Shown piece after piece: positions 1,922 to 52,903 of a stretch of DNA of 64,000 nt; within the stretch, counting starts at the first letter, position 1; each line of letters starts with the position of its first letter. Source of the DNA: an uncultured delta proteobacterium. Its GTDB lineage: Bacteria > Desulfobacterota > BSN033 > UBA1163. The stretch is from positions 928,001 through 992,000 of the forward strand of contig CAWHBU010000002.1 of NCBI GenBank assembly GCA_963827685.1. Direction: 5' to 3'. The position numbers and the translations under genes are program-made. The notes under the pieces are model-generated. The model was not told where the DNA came from. It saw only the letters and a program-made list of their open reading frames with translations, and ran no database searches.

Positions 1922-1997
1922 TCAGTAGGGGCTCTCCCCTAAACCCTTTCTGGTTCAGGGTTGACAAACCTGATCGATTCCATTACCTTAGTCCAAA

Positions 1998-2861
1998 ATG
2001 TTCAAAAATATCCAGATTCCGCCATCCTTCTCCCTCATTAGGAAAGGACAGACTTTTATCCTCCTGGAGCAGGGGTATAAAGAGGCCCTTCTTAAACAAG
2101 GAATTGATGATTTAAAAACTTTCACCCAAAAAAGCAGCCAAATCTCTCACTATCACAAAGGTCGAACTCTTCATCCTTCCATTCCTCTTGAGGACGGGAA
2201 GAGGATGGTTCTTCGCCAATATTCACACGGAGGACTGTTACGAGCCATCACTGGCAATCTCTACTTTTCCGGGGCGAGATCTTTCCGAGAGCTGGCCTTA
2301 ACAGAAGAAATTCGATCCTGCGGAATTCCTACGATCCCCTCCATCGGTGCCATCCACCATTGCATTTTCTTCCCTTTCTACCAGGCTTACTTTCTTTCCT
2401 TAGAAGTTCCTCATGCCATAGATCTAATTCAATATTTTAATGAAATGGGAGTACATTCTTCCCGTGAGAGTCTTTCCTCAAAGAGAACAACAATACGATC
2501 TGCCGGCCTTCTTATTCGACAATTTCACCAAGCTGGATATTTCCATGGCGATCTTCAGCTTAAGAACATTCTGGTAGCAGGAGACCAACTTCTGCTTATT
2601 GATTTTGATCGCTCCTATCGGAAGCCGAGCCTCTCTACGGAGGAAAGGATGAAGAATCTCCTTCGCCTCAACCGTTCTGCAGAGAAGTGGATCCAACAAG
2701 GGCTGCCTCTCACGCGGACAGACCGCTGGCGTTTCTTTTTGGCTTATGCAGGAGACGATAAAAAGATCAGGGAGGCGATGCAAAAGGCCCTTCAAACCCA
2801 TTCGCTTCGTCTTTTATTCTATCGATTGGGCTGGGCAATAGAAAAAATAGTTGGGAGTTAG
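1998..2861 (+). CDS. Lipopolysaccharide (Kdo/WaaP/InaA family) kinase
   Basis: VLRQYSHGG, RSFREL, HGDLQLKNIL and LIDFDRS kinase motifs; NLLRLNRS; TTGACA-17-TACCTT upstream. Confidence 0.85.
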   Translation: MFKNIQIPPSFSLIRKGQTFILLEQGYKEALLKQGIDDLKTFTQKSSQISHYHKGRTLHPSIPLEDGKRMVLRQYSHGGLLRAITGNLYFSGARSFRELALTEEIRSCGIPTIPSIGAIHHCIFFPFYQAYFLSLEVPHAIDLIQYFNEMGVHSSRESLSSKRTTIRSAGLLIRQFHQAGYFHGDLQLKNILVAGDQLLLIDFDRSYRKPSLSTEERMKNLLRLNRSAEKWIQQGLPLTRTDRWRFFLAYAGDDKKIREAMQKALQTHSLRLLFYRLGWAIEKIVGS

Positions 2862-2917
2862 GAGTTCGGTGTTCAGAGTTTAAAACTAAGAACTCCGAAC
2901 TAAATACTCCGAACTAA
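2851..2917. repeat. Heptamer (GAGTTCG-type) inverted repeat element at a convergent gene junction
   Basis: gagttag gagttcg gtgttca gagtt ... aactccg aactaaa tactccg aact; same family at 25873-25951. Confidence 0.7.
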
Positions 2918-3545
2918 TCTTTTTGAAAAACTCTCTCAGGGGCTGGATGAGGAATTGGGTGTGGAAAAGGAAGAAGTGATCTGCTCCCGGGATAACGGCT
3001 AAAGATTTTGGTTCATCGAGTTGCTGATACCATTTCTCCAAGAGAGCAGGTGGACAGAACGAATCCTGGTTTCCTGCAATAAAAAGTTTTCTCTTCTTGC
3101 ATCCCTTGAGAAATCCAAAATCATAAATCCCAAGGGGTGGAGCAACGGCCACTATCCCCTTGAATCTTTCATCCTCGACGGCAACGGGGAGGCCTACCCA
3201 GGCTCCAAAAGAGTATCCTACCAAAATAAGCGGCGGATGGCCGTCCTTCAGTCTTGAAGAGAAGTAGTCGGCAACAGCCTTCACATCCTGCCTCTCTGCG
3301 ATCCCCTCTCCATAAGATCCTTTGCTTTCACCCACGCCTCTGAAATTAAACCGAAGTGTGGAGAGCCCTTCTTGAGAAGCAGCCTCCGCAGAAGTCGCAA
3401 TAACAAGGTGATCCATATCTCCACCATACTGCGGATGAGGATGGCAAAGGATAACCCCACCTCTAAAAGAAGAAGCCTCTTGAATACTCAAGAGGCCTTC
3501 CAGTTGAATCCCGTCAGATGGAATAAATACCTTTTCTTCTTTCAT
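2886..3545 (-). CDS. Alpha/beta fold hydrolase
   Basis: CHPHPQYGG, RFNFRGVGES, nucleophile elbow GYSFG, GADHFF. Confidence 0.9.
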   Translation of the reverse strand: MKEEKVFIPSDGIQLEGLLSIQEASSFRGGVILCHPHPQYGGDMDHLVIATSAEAASQEGLSTLRFNFRGVGESKGSYGEGIAERQDVKAVADYFSSRLKDGHPPLILVGYSFGAWVGLPVAVEDERFKGIVAVAPPLGIYDFGFLKGCKKRKLFIAGNQDSFCPPALLEKWYQQLDEPKSLAVIPGADHFFLFHTQFLIQPLREFFKKISSEYLVRSS

Positions 3546-3976
3546 CCCATTTTAGAAAATGGCGGAATTTCTTGATGAGTCTCTCGCAATAACCCTCTTT
3601 GTCGTTCTTTTATTGGTTTTTCCTTCTCGGAAGATTCGATCTTTGCATCGACCTTCTCTTTTACCCATTCCAAGATATTCCTCAAAATTTCCAAAAACCT
3701 AACCTTAAAACGGCTGACATCCTCACTTTCAATGCTTTCATTAAGTGATTTTAGCCACTCATCCAATTTTTTTTGTACTGCTTTTAAAATCTGGAGCATG
3801 TGAGGATCTGTTTCTCCCTTTTCCTCCTCACCCTGGATGGGGACAACCCGGTACCCATCTGATTTTGTTGCTTTAGACGTCGTCTTTTTAAGAATGGAAA
3901 AAGAACCGGAAACCAAGCCTATTCCCAGGGTAAGGATCAGAAATAAGGAGATGAGAGGGCCGACCCATTTTTTCAT
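3542..3976 (-). CDS. Hypothetical protein with N-terminal membrane anchor/signal
   Basis: Hydrophobic N-terminus, helical body, 4-nt overlap with the hydrolase gene. Confidence 0.65.
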   Translation of the reverse strand: MKKWVGPLISLFLILTLGIGLVSGSFSILKKTTSKATKSDGYRVVPIQGEEEKGETDPHMLQILKAVQKKLDEWLKSLNESIESEDVSRFKVRFLEILRNILEWVKEKVDAKIESSEKEKPIKERQRGLLRETHQEIPPFSKMG

Positions 3977-4005
3977 AATTTACACACCCGTAATAGCCGT
4001 GAAAA

Positions 4006-4082
4006 TGGCGGGCGATGCGGGAGTTGAACCCACGGCCTTTGGTTCCGGAGACCAACGCTCTATCCAACTGAGCTAATCGCCC
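4006..4082 (-). tRNA. tRNA-Arg(CCG)
   Basis: GGGCGATTAGCTCAGTTGGATAGAGCGTTGGT-CTCCGGA-ACCAAAGGCCGTGGGTTCAACTCCCGCATCGCCCGCCA: 77 nt cloverleaf, anticodon CCG, encoded CCA. Confidence 0.97.
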
Positions 4083-4120
4083 ATTCTTTCTCCGAAAAGA
4101 CATATCGACTTCTCGATACC

Positions 4121-4149
4121 TTTTTACCACCTTCCAGGGTCGCTGTCAA
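4121..4149 (-). promoter_or_regulatory. Putative island-borne sigma70 promoter for the reconstituted tRNA
   Basis: TTGACA-17 nt-TAAAAA with TGn extension, ~40 nt upstream of the tRNA 5' end. Confidence 0.55.
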
Positions 4150-4283
4150 TTCTAACTGGATTGACCTGAACCTTCTTTAACCCCCACTCTTCAAGTGTAC
4201 CGCTTCCCTTCGTAATAAAAATCAACGTACCAGCTTTTTCCTCTAAGATAGACGCCCATTCAAACCACCTCCTTTTATTGAGT

Positions 4284-4895
4284 TTATTGTTTATATTCTC
4301 GTCTAAAAACCCAAGTTCCCGGAATAGTCTCTTCAAATATTCCTTTGTAAGTATAATTTCTTTTTAATATGTCTTCATATCTTAATTCATAAGGGTATTT
4401 ATTATGATTGATAAGGATACTAAAGTGATTCAGAAAATCACTCTCGGCTGCTGGGCCTTCTTCAAAACCAGTTTCTTTTTCGTAACGTACTTTTTTAATT
4501 GTCAATATTTCTTCTATGCCAGATGGAAGGACTTCTATCTTTCGAAATATTGGCGTTTTCCCGGAAATAGGTTCCAATGCAAGAACTTGAATATTAATTG
4601 CGGTTCCTTTGCCATCATTTTTGATTTGAAAACTGGTTTTTCTTACACCCTTACTCAAATCATAAGTTTTAAAATACAAAGATATAAAAGGAGCTGCTTG
4701 CTCAATTCTCATTCTCCTCGTTTCCCACGCATACCAAAAGACAGCCCCCGCAGTAATGATTAAGACAATATCTCCAATGGAAATTCCATAATACTTGGAC
4801 AAGAAAAAAGTGACATAAAGATGCAAGAGACAAGAAATTAAGATAGAAGCCAAGATTATCCAAGCAAAAGCCATTAGGTTCTTGTGATTTTTCAT
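4284..4895 (-). CDS. Hypothetical membrane protein (2 TM + beta-rich domain), paralogue of 4929-5627
   Basis: Two hydrophobic segments then YAWETRRMR..PFISLYF, IKNDGKGTAINIQV, YEDIL. Confidence 0.75.
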   Translation of the reverse strand: MKNHKNLMAFAWIILASILISCLLHLYVTFFLSKYYGISIGDIVLIITAGAVFWYAWETRRMRIEQAAPFISLYFKTYDLSKGVRKTSFQIKNDGKGTAINIQVLALEPISGKTPIFRKIEVLPSGIEEILTIKKVRYEKETGFEEGPAAESDFLNHFSILINHNKYPYELRYEDILKRNYTYKGIFEETIPGTWVFRREYKQ

Positions 4896-48764: not shown

Positions 48765-48920
48765 ATCTGTCTCCGCTTTCTATTTTATGCGGACATTATT
48801 TTACATGCTGTTTTCTATACTTTCGTAAAATTATGCCCCAAAGTCAAGGCCCAAAGCCAAGGATTGATTCATAGAAAGTATTATGGTAGTATTTATTCAT
48901 ACCAGGAAAGGAGGTCCAAA

Positions 48921-49157
48921 ATGGGAATGGCGGTTAAGAAGACGATATCTCTTCCACCAGACCTCGCAAGAGAGGTTGAAGAAATAGCTCGTGAAGAAAA
49001 GAAACCCGTTAGCGCGGTCATTCAAGATGCTCTTAGATCTGCGAGAAAGGAAAGACTCAAAGAGGAATTCTATCAGATTCAGAATTATTGGAGTCGCAAG
49101 GCAAAAGAGAAAGGGGTTCTCACTGAAAAAGACCTCGAAAGATATCTGAAACCATGA
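48921..49157 (+). CDS. CopG/RHH antitoxin
   Basis: KKTISLPPDL..EVEEIA, SAVIQDALR; ATGA overlap with PIN gene. Confidence 0.85.
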   Translation: MGMAVKKTISLPPDLAREVEEIAREEKKPVSAVIQDALRSARKERLKEEFYQIQNYWSRKAKEKGVLTEKDLERYLKP

Positions 49158-49525
49158 GAGTCGTATTTGACACGAACATTTTCATTTCTGCACTTGTGAT
49201 CCCCAGGAGCTTGGCCGAAAAGGCAATTCTTAAGATCATCGGAGGTGCGGACATTTTAGTCATATCCAAGGATATCATTAATGAGGTTTTATCCGTTCTT
49301 TCATCGAAGTTCAATCGTGACAAAGAAGGTCTTAGCCATGTCGCTGTTATGCTTTCAGAACTTGCCGAGTTGGTAAAGCCGATTAAAAAAATCAGCATTT
49401 TCAAAGATGACCCTGATAACAGAATTCTCGAATGTGCAATACATGGCAAAGCTGATGTTTTGGTTACAGGCGATAAAGAGATGCTTCAGCTAAGAGACTG
49501 TACACGCTACCTATTCATGAGCTAA
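49154..49525 (+). pseudogene. PIN-family TA toxin, C-terminus replaced by the IS end at 49499
   Basis: VVFDTNIFISAL, DDPDNRILECA, VTGDKE; last residues (CTRYLFMS) are encoded by the IR. Confidence 0.8.
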
Positions 49526-50548
49526 AAAAAGGGGTAAAATTGGGTGACACTTTTTATTGATGTGAACCCTGATATGTCCACTGGATTGGAGCCAGGATTC
49601 CACCGCGATCCTCCAGGCTGATTCTCTGACAGCCAGTCCAGATTGATTCATTGCCAACAAAATCCTTTCCACCCTTTCCATTACCCAATCATAGATTCCC
49701 CTCCTTTGCCGTTTCGTAAAAGCCGGTCTGTTGCCAGATTCAAAGAATGCCTGACAGGATGTCTTCCCATTCAGGCAAGGCCGGATCCGATGGTTCAGAT
49801 CATTGACCGCAGCTTCCGCATACGCAGCGATATGATCCCGGTAGCCATGCAAACCCAACATAATTTTCTTCCGTAGAGTTGTCTTCACCTCTCGTTGTGA
49901 CTCTTCGATTGCTCCATTGTAGGGTGCATAATACTCCGGATTGTTCAAAGGTAGAACAAATGATTCGGCTAATACATCGTTGATGGCGGTGTGGTTCATA
50001 TTCCCTTCATTATCCCGCTTCAACACCAGAGGCGTGCCATACCGATCAAACTTCTCGCTCAGATATCCAGCCACCTCTTCTCCAACCGGATACTCTCCGG
50101 CCATCGGCAAAAACTTGTACCGCGAGCCCAGATCCTGCGTATTGTGCAAATAGATTTTACCGGCTATCCCCAGGTCATATGCCGTGAAGTCCATAGCCCA
50201 CACTACCCCTGGCGTCAGCCATTCGATCCAGCGAAGATGGGCACGGCGATCCGACTCCAGGTCGTGCCGTACCCGCTCCACCATTCGCCCCAGCTCCCGC
50301 CGTGACACACTAAACCGGTACCGTTGATATAAGCCGGTTGTTCCTACACTCCGCTTCACCCCATGATCTAACGATTGAACCTCCGTGTCAAGAACCGAAG
50401 GATCAAACGGTTGTACCTTCTTCGGACCCGGACGATTGATTAAAACAACGTTTTCCTTGATCCTGAAGCGCCACCGGTTAAAACTCGCTAAAGGGAGCTG
50501 AAGCGTCTTGCAAATCATCCCATAAGGCATCCCTGTCCGTTCCTTCAT
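49511..50548 (-). CDS. DDE transposase catalytic ORF (IS3-like OrfB), probably translated via -1 frameshift from 50593-50961
   Basis: WAMDF, QDLGSRY, LKRDNE, NGAIE; its frame is open upstream to the A9 run at 50599-50607. Confidence 0.85.
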   Translation of the reverse strand: MKERTGMPYGMICKTLQLPLASFNRWRFRIKENVVLINRPGPKKVQPFDPSVLDTEVQSLDHGVKRSVGTTGLYQRYRFSVSRRELGRMVERVRHDLESDRRAHLRWIEWLTPGVVWAMDFTAYDLGIAGKIYLHNTQDLGSRYKFLPMAGEYPVGEEVAGYLSEKFDRYGTPLVLKRDNEGNMNHTAINDVLAESFVLPLNNPEYYAPYNGAIEESQREVKTTLRKKIMLGLHGYRDHIAAYAEAAVNDLNHRIRPCLNGKTSCQAFFESGNRPAFTKRQRRGIYDWVMERVERILLAMNQSGLAVRESAWRIAVESWLQSSGHIRVHINKKCHPILPLFLAHE

Positions 50549-50592
50549 ACTCTCAATCGTCTCTACAACCTTTCTGATCGCTTCTTGCCGAT

Positions 50593-50961
50593 CTATTGTT
50601 TTTTTTTAGCGCCGCCGCGGTCCCGAAACTCCTCATACACCCCCAGGAACTCTTTCACCTTGGTGGTCTGCTTCGCGACATCCAGCTTCTTCTCCAATTC
50701 CTGGATCCGCTCCAGAAGCGTCTCCTTCTCTTCGTCCACAGGCACAGGCGGTCTTCCCGCAGGATGATTCTCCAACGCCAGGGCCATGGCTTTGAGCGAC
50801 TTCTCCTCCCACTCGTAATACGTCTTGCGCGACACCCCCAGCCGCTGCGCTCCCTCCTTTGCAGTTAAGGCTCCACTGCGCACCTGGAGAATCACCAGCG
50901 CCCGCTCCCGTGCAAGTTTCTGTTCCTTCTCCCTCTCGTGCCGCCGTTTCCTTTCCTCCAT
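50593..50961 (-). CDS. HTH + coiled-coil protein (OrfA-like)
   Basis: AKEGAQRLGVSRKTYYEW, GRPP, coiled coil, ends in GCT AAA AAA AAA CAA TAG. Confidence 0.85.
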   Translation of the reverse strand: MEERKRRHEREKEQKLARERALVILQVRSGALTAKEGAQRLGVSRKTYYEWEEKSLKAMALALENHPAGRPPVPVDEEKETLLERIQELEKKLDVAKQTTKVKEFLGVYEEFRDRGGAKKKQ

Positions 50962-52579
50962 CCAAAATCTCCCTGTAGATTGTCAGACCTTCTTCTCTGC
51001 CCCAACCTCCTTCAACTCTCCTGGCTTGGCCACCGGACTTCCCTGCAGTCTCGCCAAACGCCGCTCCAATCCTTTCATCGCTCCTCCCTTGCTCTTCCGC
51101 TCCAACAATACCGCAAGACGCGAGTTCAATGCCACTCTCTTCTCCATCACCGCAACCCGTGACTGCAATGCCAAGAGCATCCCCTCCATCGCCCGCTCCT
51201 GCCACTGGTTCAATAAACTCCACGCGACTCCCAACTCCTGGCAAACCTCTCCGGGTTTGCGTCTCTCCGTCCATACCGACAACACCGCCCGGCACTTCTC
51301 CTCCGCCGTGTGCCCCGAAACCTTCCTCCCTCTCTTGTCCTCTATCCCTGACCTCTCTACCTTCGGCTTCTCTACCTTGTCCATCGCTCTCCTCCCTCTT
51401 AATAGAACGATCTTTCTCTTCTCCTTTGGCGCCAACTTCATAGATCATCTCCTGCTTTCCACCGCCCTCTTCATCATCCACCATCAAACGCAGCTTTCCC
51501 TTCTCCGCCCGTAAGACCACCGACTGCCCCTCCATCCGCCCTACCATGTAAAACGGCTCCCGCGGCTTCCCCCGCAAGGCCATCTCCAGCACATTCTCTG
51601 CGATCCCTTGCTCCATCGTCTTTCGCAGCTCTGCCTGGATCTCAAAGTACCGATCCGCAGGACACAGCCCTCCAATCCCCTGGTGAGGCCGCTTGTAATT
51701 GTAATACTGCACCCACTGCCGAATCCTCTCTCTCGCCTCCTCAAAACTCCCAAACTGCGCCCGTACCAAGAACTCCTCATAGATCGTCTTCCAAAACCGC
51801 TCCACCTTCCCCAGCGTCATCGGATGATGGGCCTGGGACTTAATGTGTCTGACTCGGTCCTTCCGTAACTCCCGCTCAAACCGAGTCGATCCCCGCCAGT
51901 TCGTATATTGCCGTCCCCGATCTGTCAACACCTCCTTCGGTACCCCATACTCCCCAACTGCCCGACAATACACCTCCAGTACCTGATCCGCCGTCTGGCT
52001 CCGGTATAACTCCAAACCCGCCATGTACCGCGAGTAATCGTCGATAAACCCGATCAAATAGGCATACCGACCCCCCAGGCGAAAGGTGAAGATGTCCGAC
52101 TGCCACAATTGATTCGGTGTCGACCGCTCAAAAAACCGAGGACGGGTGATGTTGCGATGGTGTTTCTTTCTGAAAGGAACAATCAACGATTCTGCCCGCA
52201 GCGTCCGACGGACTGTCTCCGGGCTCGCGCTGAGGAAGAACGCACGCTTTAAAAGATGGGAAATCCGCTTGACACCAAAGAGAGGCTCACGCTTCTTGAT
52301 CTCGACGATCTTCTCGCGTACTGGTCCGGGAAGCTTCCGTCGTCTCCCCGAGGATATAATACGATTCCGTAACCCCGCTTCTCCCCGTTCCTGATATGCC
52401 TTCACCCAACGACAAATGACATCTTTACTGGCTCCTGCCTCCTCGGACAACAAAGAAACTGGTAACCCTTCTTCTAATCGTAACTTCACACACCGAAGCT
52501 TGAACTCAACCCCATACCGCTTCCCATACCGACTTCCTTTCCTCTTGCCCTTCTTCTTAACTCCTGCTACATTCTCCAT
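50633..52579 (-). CDS. IS481-like DDE transposase with long overlapping tail
   Basis: HTH, PNQLWQSDI, IDDYSRY, TDRGRQY, GKVERFW, YNYKRPHQGIGG; the last ~250 aa overlap two other ORFs. Confidence 0.9.
   Translation of the reverse strand: MENVAGVKKKGKRKGSRYGKRYGVEFKLRCVKLRLEEGLPVSLLSEEAGASKDVICRWVKAYQERGEAGLRNRIISSGRRRKLPGPVREKIVEIKKREPLFGVKRISHLLKRAFFLSASPETVRRTLRAESLIVPFRKKHHRNITRPRFFERSTPNQLWQSDIFTFRLGGRYAYLIGFIDDYSRYMAGLELYRSQTADQVLEVYCRAVGEYGVPKEVLTDRGRQYTNWRGSTRFERELRKDRVRHIKSQAHHPMTLGKVERFWKTIYEEFLVRAQFGSFEEARERIRQWVQYYNYKRPHQGIGGLCPADRYFEIQAELRKTMEQGIAENVLEMALRGKPREPFYMVGRMEGQSVVLRAEKGKLRLMVDDEEGGGKQEMIYEVGAKGEEKDRSIKREESDGQGREAEGREVRDRGQEREEGFGAHGGGEVPGGVVGMDGETQTRRGLPGVGSRVEFIEPVAGAGDGGDALGIAVTGCGDGEESGIELASCGIVGAEEQGRSDERIGAAFGETAGKSGGQARRVEGGWGREEGLTIYREILDGGKETAAREGEGTETCTGAGAGDSPGAQWSLNCKGGSAAAGGVAQDVLRVGGEVAQSHGPGVGESSCGKTACACGRREGDASGADPGIGEEAGCREADHQGERVPGGV
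50983..51384 (-). CDS. HTH (transposase HTH-like) accessory protein
   Basis: RBS GGAGGAG; HTAEEKCRAVL..W...VCQELGV.W..L.QW. Confidence 0.75.
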   Translation of the reverse strand: MDKVEKPKVERSGIEDKRGRKVSGHTAEEKCRAVLSVWTERRKPGEVCQELGVAWSLLNQWQERAMEGMLLALQSRVAVMEKRVALNSRLAVLLERKSKGGAMKGLERRLARLQGSPVAKPGELKEVGAEKKV

Positions 52580-52903
52580 GGGTACACTCCTTTCTCCTTC
52601 TCAGGAGTGTCACCCATTTCTCCCTTCTTCTTTAGCTTACGATCTGGTAGTTAGCTCATTTTTTTCCCTGATAAATAGATTCATGAAATAGATGCCAAAG
52701 GAATTCTTTCCTTTCAAAAAGTGAATTTGAAGAAATGATGGACTTATGTATTATAATTACTAAGGTGTCCATAATTGAGCAGGCATATTGTTCTGAAAAT
52801 CTCCCCTAACCCCTCTTTTCCAAAGAGGGGGAGTTCTTCCTTTTTCTAAGAGGAGGCAGGGATTTAATCTTCAATGTCTACGTAATTATTGAGTAATCAT
52901 TCG

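Follow-up and report, generated by a model that had tools for sequence, protein, structure and literature searches.

An insertion sequence family encoding two integrase-fold transposases between a single pair of terminal repeats

A single pair of terminal inverted repeats (IRs) in the genome of an uncultured delta proteobacterium encloses genes for two different transposases of the DDE kind (RNase-H-like core with a D-D-E catalytic triad), a layout which raises the question of whether one insertion sequence (IS) has been caught within another, or whether two catalytic enzymes serve one mobile unit. The locus occupies the minus strand at positions 49499–52658 of a 64,000-nucleotide stretch of contig CAWHBU010000002.1, hereafter denoted the window. 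To our knowledge, bacterial ISs with integrase-fold enzymes are assumed to rely on a single catalytic transposase and to produce a short duplication of the target. We find that the 3,160-bp element, which has TG...CA tips, is one intact IS of the rve DDE kind, not one IS nested in another; its family is widespread, and apparently undescribed and unnamed. Our reading is that both DDE enzymes act in transposition, to which we assign a probability of roughly 0.6.

The extent of the element is defined by its copies within the source genome (5.2 Mb in 14 contigs, denoted G000). Four full-length copies of ~100% identity, located on two contigs (A, in the window, to D), share exactly the interval 49499–52658, and their unrelated flanks diverge immediately outside it; copy D has a C in place of T at its right tip. 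A fifth copy (E; G000:C2:8693-11848), 83% identical, retains all four reading frames. As four near-identical copies are present, the element is, on this comparison of sequences, recently active. The left tip of copy E (L005, 1501-1515) lacks its first few bases: likeness to the uninterrupted DNA of a relative reaches ...AAGCCGC and the element begins TAACTACC, which suggests that this end arose by deletion or by an illegitimate join. OrfB, the second of the two DDE proteins, was searched for in a set of 41 related genomes that includes G000, and was found in five; besides G000, two hold full-length elements of ~80% nucleotide identity, one holds an internal-deletion derivative and a fragment, and another a 24-residue OrfB remnant. 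The derivative at L021 (G021:C377, 3222-4759) keeps both ends and no intact gene, with nt 5-1011 joined directly to nt 2594-3144 of the element; several solo fragments, made up of its first 130-350 nt (left end and start of the first transposase gene), are scattered in related genomes G064, G065 and G068. RNA contigs of one metatranscriptome match parts of the element at 90-95%, which is not proof that the window copy is transcribed.

All four genes of the element are co-oriented on the minus strand. The first transposase, Tnp1, has a whole frame of 648 residues (52579–50633) with helix-turn-helix (HTH) domains and matches to rve (E 2.5e-15), rve_3 (E 4.8e-17) and the IS481 model NF033577 (216 bits). 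Its 380-residue core (51440–52579) comprises the N-terminal HTH domains, the DDE core (D162, D220, E260) and a conserved C-terminal block that extends to residue 361; the core is followed by a Gly/Glu/Arg-rich tail of 268 codons plus stop (50633–51439), overprinted in another frame on both HTH genes. These encode HTH152 (51441–50983; 152 residues), the first OrfA-like HTH protein, which matches HTH_Tnp_1 (E 3e-5) and is found in relatives, and OrfA (50961–50593; 122 residues), the second, which matches HTH_28, HTH_Tnp_1 and the N-terminal part of the IS3 model, is conserved in relatives and ends in a run of nine A (A9; 50599–50607, T9 on the plus strand). HTH152 and OrfA are paralogues (31% identity over 52 residues, E 7e-6). 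The A9 run lies in the overlap between OrfA and OrfB, the divergent DDE protein of 345 residues from its ATG (50548–49511; D120, D179, E215; weak rve match, E 1e-3), which is in the −1 frame; the OrfB frame is already open from 50605, within the A run, one base back. Compared with eight relatives (76-90% identity), substitutions peak at the third codon position of the named frame in all four genes. Promoter- and terminator-like sites are no more frequent in the element than in shuffled sequence.

The two ends are each 53 bp long. The left end (IRL; 52606–52658, minus-strand reading TGAGCTAACTACCAGAT...TGGGTGACACT) adjoins Tnp1 and the right end (IRR; 49499–49551, plus strand, TGTACACGCTACCTATTCATGAGC...TGGGTGACACT) adjoins OrfB; in gene orientation the arms read TGAGCTAACTACCAGATCGT...AAATGGGTGACACT (IRL) and TGTACACGCTACCTATTCAT...AATTGGGTGACACT (IRR). 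They match at 36 of 53 positions without gaps, a score which, among the 127,894 53-mers of the window, is reached only twice, by the arm itself and by its partner. The initial annotation, made from the sequence of the window, had described these imperfect terminal repeats, and the blocks it named (CTACC, AGCTAAA and TGGGTGACACT) are present. Its four co-oriented open reading frames, including an IS481-like and a second DDE transposase, are confirmed by gene calls and family matches, and the triads which it judged intact (WQSD/TDRG/KVER in the first enzyme, WAMD/KRDN/GAIE in the second) are conserved in relatives. One correction to the layout applies: there are four genes, but the IS481-like frame passes beyond the start of the HTH gene, runs for 648 codons and overlaps both HTH genes. 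It had also seen no internal IRs marking a nested IS; in our search of the window element no inverted or direct repeat pair able to bound one was found, the pairs present being at most 30 nt long and 65-93% matched.

Comparison across genomes bore out the suggestion that the four genes and two ends form a conserved unit. Covering one genome per species, the scan yielded 159 relatives; the best 80 loci were retained, and layout was judged in the 50 of these with at least 2,200 nt upstream of OrfB, the other 30 being too short. By tblastn with the four window proteins, the order Tnp1–HTH152–OrfA–OrfB is kept in 48 of the 50 (44 contiguous and co-oriented, four with all genes plus an IS21-like insert), whilst the remaining two are OrfB fragments; neither transposase was found in isolation with IRs of its own, an alternative raised in the initial annotation. 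Many of the 30 short loci show whatever part of the layout their contig can hold. Identity to the window proteins falls to 37% for OrfB and 57% for Tnp1 among the loci, and element length ranges from 2,834 to 3,253 bp in 40 delimited copies. The IS21-like element (~2.3 kb; IstA 415 residues, IstB 316 residues) is inserted in two-transposase copies of an NC10-labelled genome (L093, L095, L098 and L100, at ~1,970-4,650 in each locus); these inserts lie at three different positions, one with a 7-bp duplication (L098), one with a 55-bp overlap and two with a 12-nt loss.

The family extends well beyond these loci. In a 90%-clustered database, 1,657 of 3,306 candidates are homologues of OrfB at E ≤1e-3; the best 120 are 77-87% identical, mostly unnamed or 'hypothetical', and often lie on contigs of 3.1-3.5 kb. 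Against representatives at 50% identity, OrfB matches 1,340 clusters at E ≤1e-3 and 240 at E ≤1e-30, nearly all of them 320-360 residues long. About a dozen phylum-level labels occur in the record titles of the best 80 loci, namely Thermodesulfobacteriota or 'delta proteobacterium', Nitrospirota, Elusimicrobia, Fibrobacterota, Acidobacteria/Terriglobia and NC10/Methylomirabilis, together with Verrucomicrobia, Lentisphaerae, Desulfobacterales, Anaeromyxobacteraceae, Chromatiaceae and Alphaproteobacteria. Within this breadth the two halves of the element have stayed together: pairwise distances of Tnp1 and OrfB correlate with a Mantel r of 0.957 over 39 distinct elements (reached by none of 2,000 permutations), a value inflated by kinship of the sequences, although the absence of shuffling between halves still stands. 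No relative of OrfB was found in 72,556 plasmid records, nor was a locus for the distant OrfB relative P0267 found in metagenome contigs. The initial annotation had allowed that the layout might already be defined; a search of the literature, judged by titles and abstracts, found no publication describing an IS with two integrase-fold transposases. The element is a variant of the IS3/IS481 kind and probably represents a new IS family.

Both DDE proteins look catalytically competent, as judged from their conservation, and an RNase-H-like core of the rve type with a D-D-E triad is found in each. In Tnp1, D162, D220 and E260 are invariant in sets of 43 and of 27 sequences. The OrfB triad (D120, D179, E215) shows no variation across 35 cluster representatives of 30-43% identity; in two sets of genomic copies D179 is likewise invariant, at least 90% of the copies in either set retain D120, and E215 is retained by at least 90% in one set and by all in the other. 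The OrfB family profile matches retroviral integrase cores (mouse mammary tumour virus integrase, E 2e-11), and the AlphaFold model of OrfB, with a mean predicted local distance difference test score (pLDDT) of 81, superposes on integrase catalytic cores (human T-cell leukaemia virus 2 core, target-normalised template-modelling score 0.85). The corresponding model of Tnp1 (pLDDT 61) was too poor for use. Since a profile–profile alignment of Tnp1 38-315 with OrfB 5-273 (21% identity, E 3e-5) is nearly full-length and brings the three catalytic residues into register, the two enzymes are, by this sequence criterion, distant paralogues along almost their full extent. Of the two, OrfB is the faster-evolving, with a slope of 1.21 and distances of up to 0.67 versus 0.45.

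Each half of the element recalls a known IS family. IS481 elements are ~1-1.3 kb long and have a single transposase gene without frameshift as their sole coding content, whilst IS3 elements (~1.2-1.6 kb) have one OrfAB transposase as their sole catalytic protein. Tnp1 resembles IS481 transposases in its N-terminal HTH and rve core and aligns end to end with NF033577 (216.2 bits, E 6e-64), and the TG tips are shared; this score is, however, borderline, falling below the curated cutoff of 224 bits, and the element differs from IS481 in its second DDE gene and two OrfA-like genes, present in 48 of 50 loci, in its length of ~3.1 kb, and in the overprinting of a Tnp1 tail of 130-290 codons on other genes. 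Its second half is built like an IS3 element, with an HTH OrfA, an overlapping rve DDE OrfB, a slippery A run within the overlap through which the two would be fused, and TG...CA tips; the A9 run has a counterpart in IS1447 (excerpt of PMC6211511). Against the IS3 model NF033516 (cutoff 160 bits), by contrast, OrfB scores 27.2, OrfA 27.1 and Tnp1 154.8 bits, and OrfB reaches 33 bits against the IS481 model. Unlike IS3, the element has, upstream, a further complete transposase and another OrfA-like gene, and it is about twice as long.

Systems with more than one transposition protein offer a different comparison. Tn7-like elements have a heteromeric TnsA/TnsB transposase and asymmetric ends; TnsA has a restriction-endonuclease fold, the ATPase TnsC acts with target selectors, and a 5-bp duplication is made. 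IS21 elements encode the DDE protein IstA and the AAA+ ATPase IstB, both of which are needed, and make duplications. By this comparison, two catalytic proteins per element and asymmetric ends are common to the present element and the Tn7-like systems, but the element is small and its second enzyme has the rve fold; with IS21 it has in common more than one gene product in an IS, although the helper in IS21 is an ATPase instead of a second DDE protein. No TnsA-, TnsC- or IstB-like domain was found in the four products (Pfam/NCBIfam, E ≤0.01).

The ends of the family are themselves asymmetric. In 45 end pairs, anchored on the inner block GGGTRACAC, both arms begin with TG and reach the inner block after 42-43 nt; all 34 distinct IR pairs have TG at each tip. 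The IRL consensus is TGnnCTAAC.ACCAGAT.ATGA and the IRR consensus TGTGC....C.TAATTATGA. IRLs are 74% identical between elements, whereas identity between the IRL and IRR of one element is only 61%; positions 14-15 are end-specific (AG left, TA right), and the IRL-specific CTAAC and CCAGAT are kept across the 34 distinct pairs. Elsewhere in the genome the inner block GGGTRACACT is no more frequent than chance predicts (17 versus 19.9 expected). The end-specific positions, together with the conservation of both triads and the co-divergence of the two enzymes, form the basis for suggesting that the enzymes may act as a heteromer, or with one enzyme per end. Both DDE proteins would be working parts of one transposition machine, which might take the form of a heteromeric transpososome or of work shared by end or by step.

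No target duplication was detected. The test left out copies D (C-for-T tip) and E (cut tip), which have no TG at one end; amongst the remaining 43 distinct insertions, duplications of 3 bp or more flank none, 2-bp duplications flank four (2.7 expected), and no other offset of the boundaries does better. By eye, the flanks of copy D likewise have no duplication, and none of the cross-copy duplications expected under an inversion model was seen by eye in the flanks examined. As a positive control, the same flank method recovers the 7-bp duplication of the IS21-like insert in L098. A 1,124-bp IS with inverted ends CTAGTATCTA..., present in five near-identical copies (G000:C2:597729-598853 and four other places), has CTAG ends common to all its copies and was of no use as a duplication control; one of these copies lies 56 nt from copy D, whose other flank belongs to another repeat family with ~20 genome matches. 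According to an excerpt of PMC10045372, IS3 subgroups make duplications of 3, 4 or 5 bp and IS481EU duplications of 4, 15 or 25 bp, and the 0 of 43 found here departs from both. Because no staggered-cut duplication results, the joining of the element to its target would be unlike that of IS3 and IS481.

Insertion sites were compared with related genomes for copies A-E and for loci L094, L097, L032, L036 and L056 (two of the donor genomes are the sole genomes of their genera), and no clean empty site was found among these copies and loci; at A, C, E and L097 the flanks are non-adjacent in the relative. Copy A has inserted in a VapC-like PIN_3 toxin gene (49154–49498, plus strand; PIN_3 E 2e-19), of which the 3′ end is cut: orthologues in four relatives run on for ~50 nt that are absent from the window. 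On the other side the element is followed by uvrA, which is on another contig from the PIN_3 gene in the three relatives holding both. At copy C the cut gene lacks its first ~55 nt, and in five relatives the other flank does not lie close to the homologous site, whilst the flanks of copy E are 671 kb apart in a relative that is 96-97% identical. For the NC10-labelled L097, a relative 91-95% identical in the left flank has 1,073 bp between the junctions. Copies B and D and loci L032 and L094 have flanks that are repeated or unconserved. With flanks non-adjacent or target bases absent relative to relatives, all four comparable sites therefore show missing or rearranged target DNA, which may reflect either later IS-mediated rearrangement or a mode of insertion that removes target DNA. 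An exact 30-nt flank pattern had no match in metagenome contigs, and when the element was removed in silico, counts of junction-spanning open frames were equal in all frames.

The surroundings of copy A have features of their own. The PIN_3 gene is one half of a toxin–antitoxin pair (48864–49525), in which a 97-residue upstream gene overlaps it; because this pair stands upstream of dapB in one relative, the module moves between genomes. The interval between the element and uvrA (52757–52892) is a ~135-nt repeat, resembling a repetitive extragenic palindrome or a miniature inverted-repeat transposable element, with many occurrences of 72-92% identity in related genomes.

Two features bear on how the genes would be expressed, the first of which is the A run. 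A run of A6-A9 stands at the OrfA/OrfB junction in 58 of 58 distinct sequences (A8 in 34, A9 in 19, A7 in three and A6 in two). Relative to OrfA, OrfB is shifted by −1 in the window clade and in a Nitrospirota-labelled clade, and by +1 in most loci of greater distance, where a stop codon often follows the run directly. No conserved hairpin was found 3′ of the run (−3.8 kcal/mol, one compensatory pair, 10 sequences). OrfA and OrfB would be fused through slippage on the run; in the IS3-family element IS1447, slippage on an A9 run is transcriptional and goes both +1 and −1, at ~16% each (excerpt of PMC6211511). As OrfB lies at −1 in some clades and at +1 in others, for both of which one signal could serve, transcriptional slippage seems likelier than −1 ribosomal frameshifting alone.

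The second feature is the tail of Tnp1, whose frame stays open for 114-286 codons past the conserved core in nearly all members of the family. To gauge this, the HTH152 and OrfA proteins were held fixed and their synonymous codons resampled from the element's own usage. Across the two genes, the Tnp1 frame of the window copy has no stops, versus 5.4 and 3.9 expected (p 0.0015 and 0.006), whilst the third frame, as a control, has 9 and 3 versus 8.1 and 5.6 expected. In several relatives of lower GC content, 12.6 (L067), 10.3 (L075), 8.6 (L096) and 8.3 (L086) stops are expected and each has none. As the tested stretch is itself defined by the open frame, the weight of this test lies in the length of the frame and its recurrence across lineages. 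The amino-acid sequence of the tail is not conserved: a base that is third in an HTH codon is first in a tail codon, and such positions change at 0.27, in line with the 0.29-0.33 of third positions elsewhere. In 33 of 55 elements the Tnp1 frame closes no more than 60 nt from the A run, in at least 16 of them through a TAA formed by a T and the two leading A of the run; in 17 of the 55, the Nitrospirota-labelled clade, it closes no more than 60 nt from the HTH152 stop, and in eight at neither place. The long form is also seen by gene callers, 96 of the best 120 Tnp1 homologues in the database having at least 600 residues. In one locus (L107:3030-6053), a single open frame of ~1,000 codons runs from Tnp1 via the tail to OrfB, with two DDE domains. 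We read the open frame as a sign of selection for translation as far as the next start; it would either provide a disordered tail or bring about translational coupling, with ribosomes carried to the OrfA/OrfB start and both enzymes made together.

Several other accounts of the locus have to be set against the action of both enzymes in transposition. We think it rather unlikely that one DDE protein moves the element whilst the other is a regulator (for instance an inhibitor acting by competition for the ends or by poisoning of the complex) or an accessory DNA-binding factor. IS3-type elements use truncated or alternative transposase products as regulators, and the faster evolution of OrfB (slope 1.21, distances 0.67 versus 0.45), its scores of merely 33 and 27 bits against the IS481 and IS3 models, and the imperfect invariance of its D120 and E215 in genomic copies would all suit such a role; a pure regulator, however, needs no intact triad, yet that of OrfB is invariant in 35 representatives, its catalytic core is confidently folded in prediction, and no well-flanked member lacks either gene, save the two fragments. 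An old fusion of an IS481-like with an IS3-like element, in which either enzyme by itself would suffice to mobilise the shared ends, each perhaps in its own conditions or along its own route, would explain why the halves resemble two IS types side by side (Tnp1 IS481-like; OrfA, OrfB and the A run IS3-like), why the enzymes are distant paralogues, and why the inner block GGGTRACAC and the TG tip are common to both arms. Redundant genes in a selfish element should nevertheless often vanish, whereas here the layout is kept in 48 of 50 loci with tight co-divergence; together with the conserved end-specific positions, and with a Tnp1 frame whose open extent, as far as the A run or the HTH152 stop, is suggestive of linked expression, this makes redundancy improbable.

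A polyprotein with two DDE domains, produced by reading the Tnp1 frame via its tail into OrfB through slippage on the A run, is very unlikely as a general account, for all that L107 has just such a frame, that OrfB and Tnp1 share a frame in the window clade, and that the Tnp1 frame is open up to the A run in most members. L107 is one of 55 elements; in the window two stops part the Tnp1 and OrfB frames, at least 16 members have a TAA that incorporates the two leading A of the run and would survive slippage further along, and the frame of the Nitrospirota-labelled clade reaches no further than the HTH152 stop, which precedes the run by 370-550 nt. Recent nesting of one IS in another is the usual cause of two adjacent transposase genes, but this, like an assembly chimera, can be put aside as exceedingly improbable: there are no internal repeats, the 3.1-kb unit is found in many genomes and phyla with its halves co-diverging, and four near-identical copies lie on two contigs.

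Some observations count against the view that both enzymes act in transposition, or against parts of it. OrfB D120 and E215 are not strictly invariant in every genomic copy, although some of the copies concerned may be decayed, and conservation of a triad is compatible with a regulatory role. The missing duplications could partly come from later rearrangement, given that flanks are non-adjacent at four of four comparable sites. The open Tnp1 frame taken alone is not significant in high-GC members, where the expected number of stops is too low. No circle junction or other joint was found in the contigs of public runs, a search which covered assembled contigs only. As regards novelty, the family may already bear a name in ISfinder or TnCentral. 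With these points in mind, a fuller reading is put forward tentatively and is on balance unlikely: a new IS family would have two DDE transposases specialised by end or by step; their synthesis would be coupled through a first frame overprinted on the regulator genes as far as the slippage run; and joining of the ends to the target would not involve a single coordinated staggered cut, leaving no duplication and possibly losing target DNA between the joints (1,073 bp at L097, gene ends at copies A and C).

A family of ISs with two transposases breaks both the expectation of one catalytic enzyme and that of a target duplication, and it is common, with homologues from sediment, wetland and soil bacteria. 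Annotation pipelines split the element into an 'IS481/InsO' gene and hypothetical genes, and the unit and its role at rearrangement breakpoints are therefore missed. The Tnp1 tail clearly exemplifies a frame that stays open across other genes although its own sequence is not conserved. If both enzymes are needed, the element would be a compact natural system for studying how strand cleavage, end recognition and target joining are divided between two related DDE enzymes.

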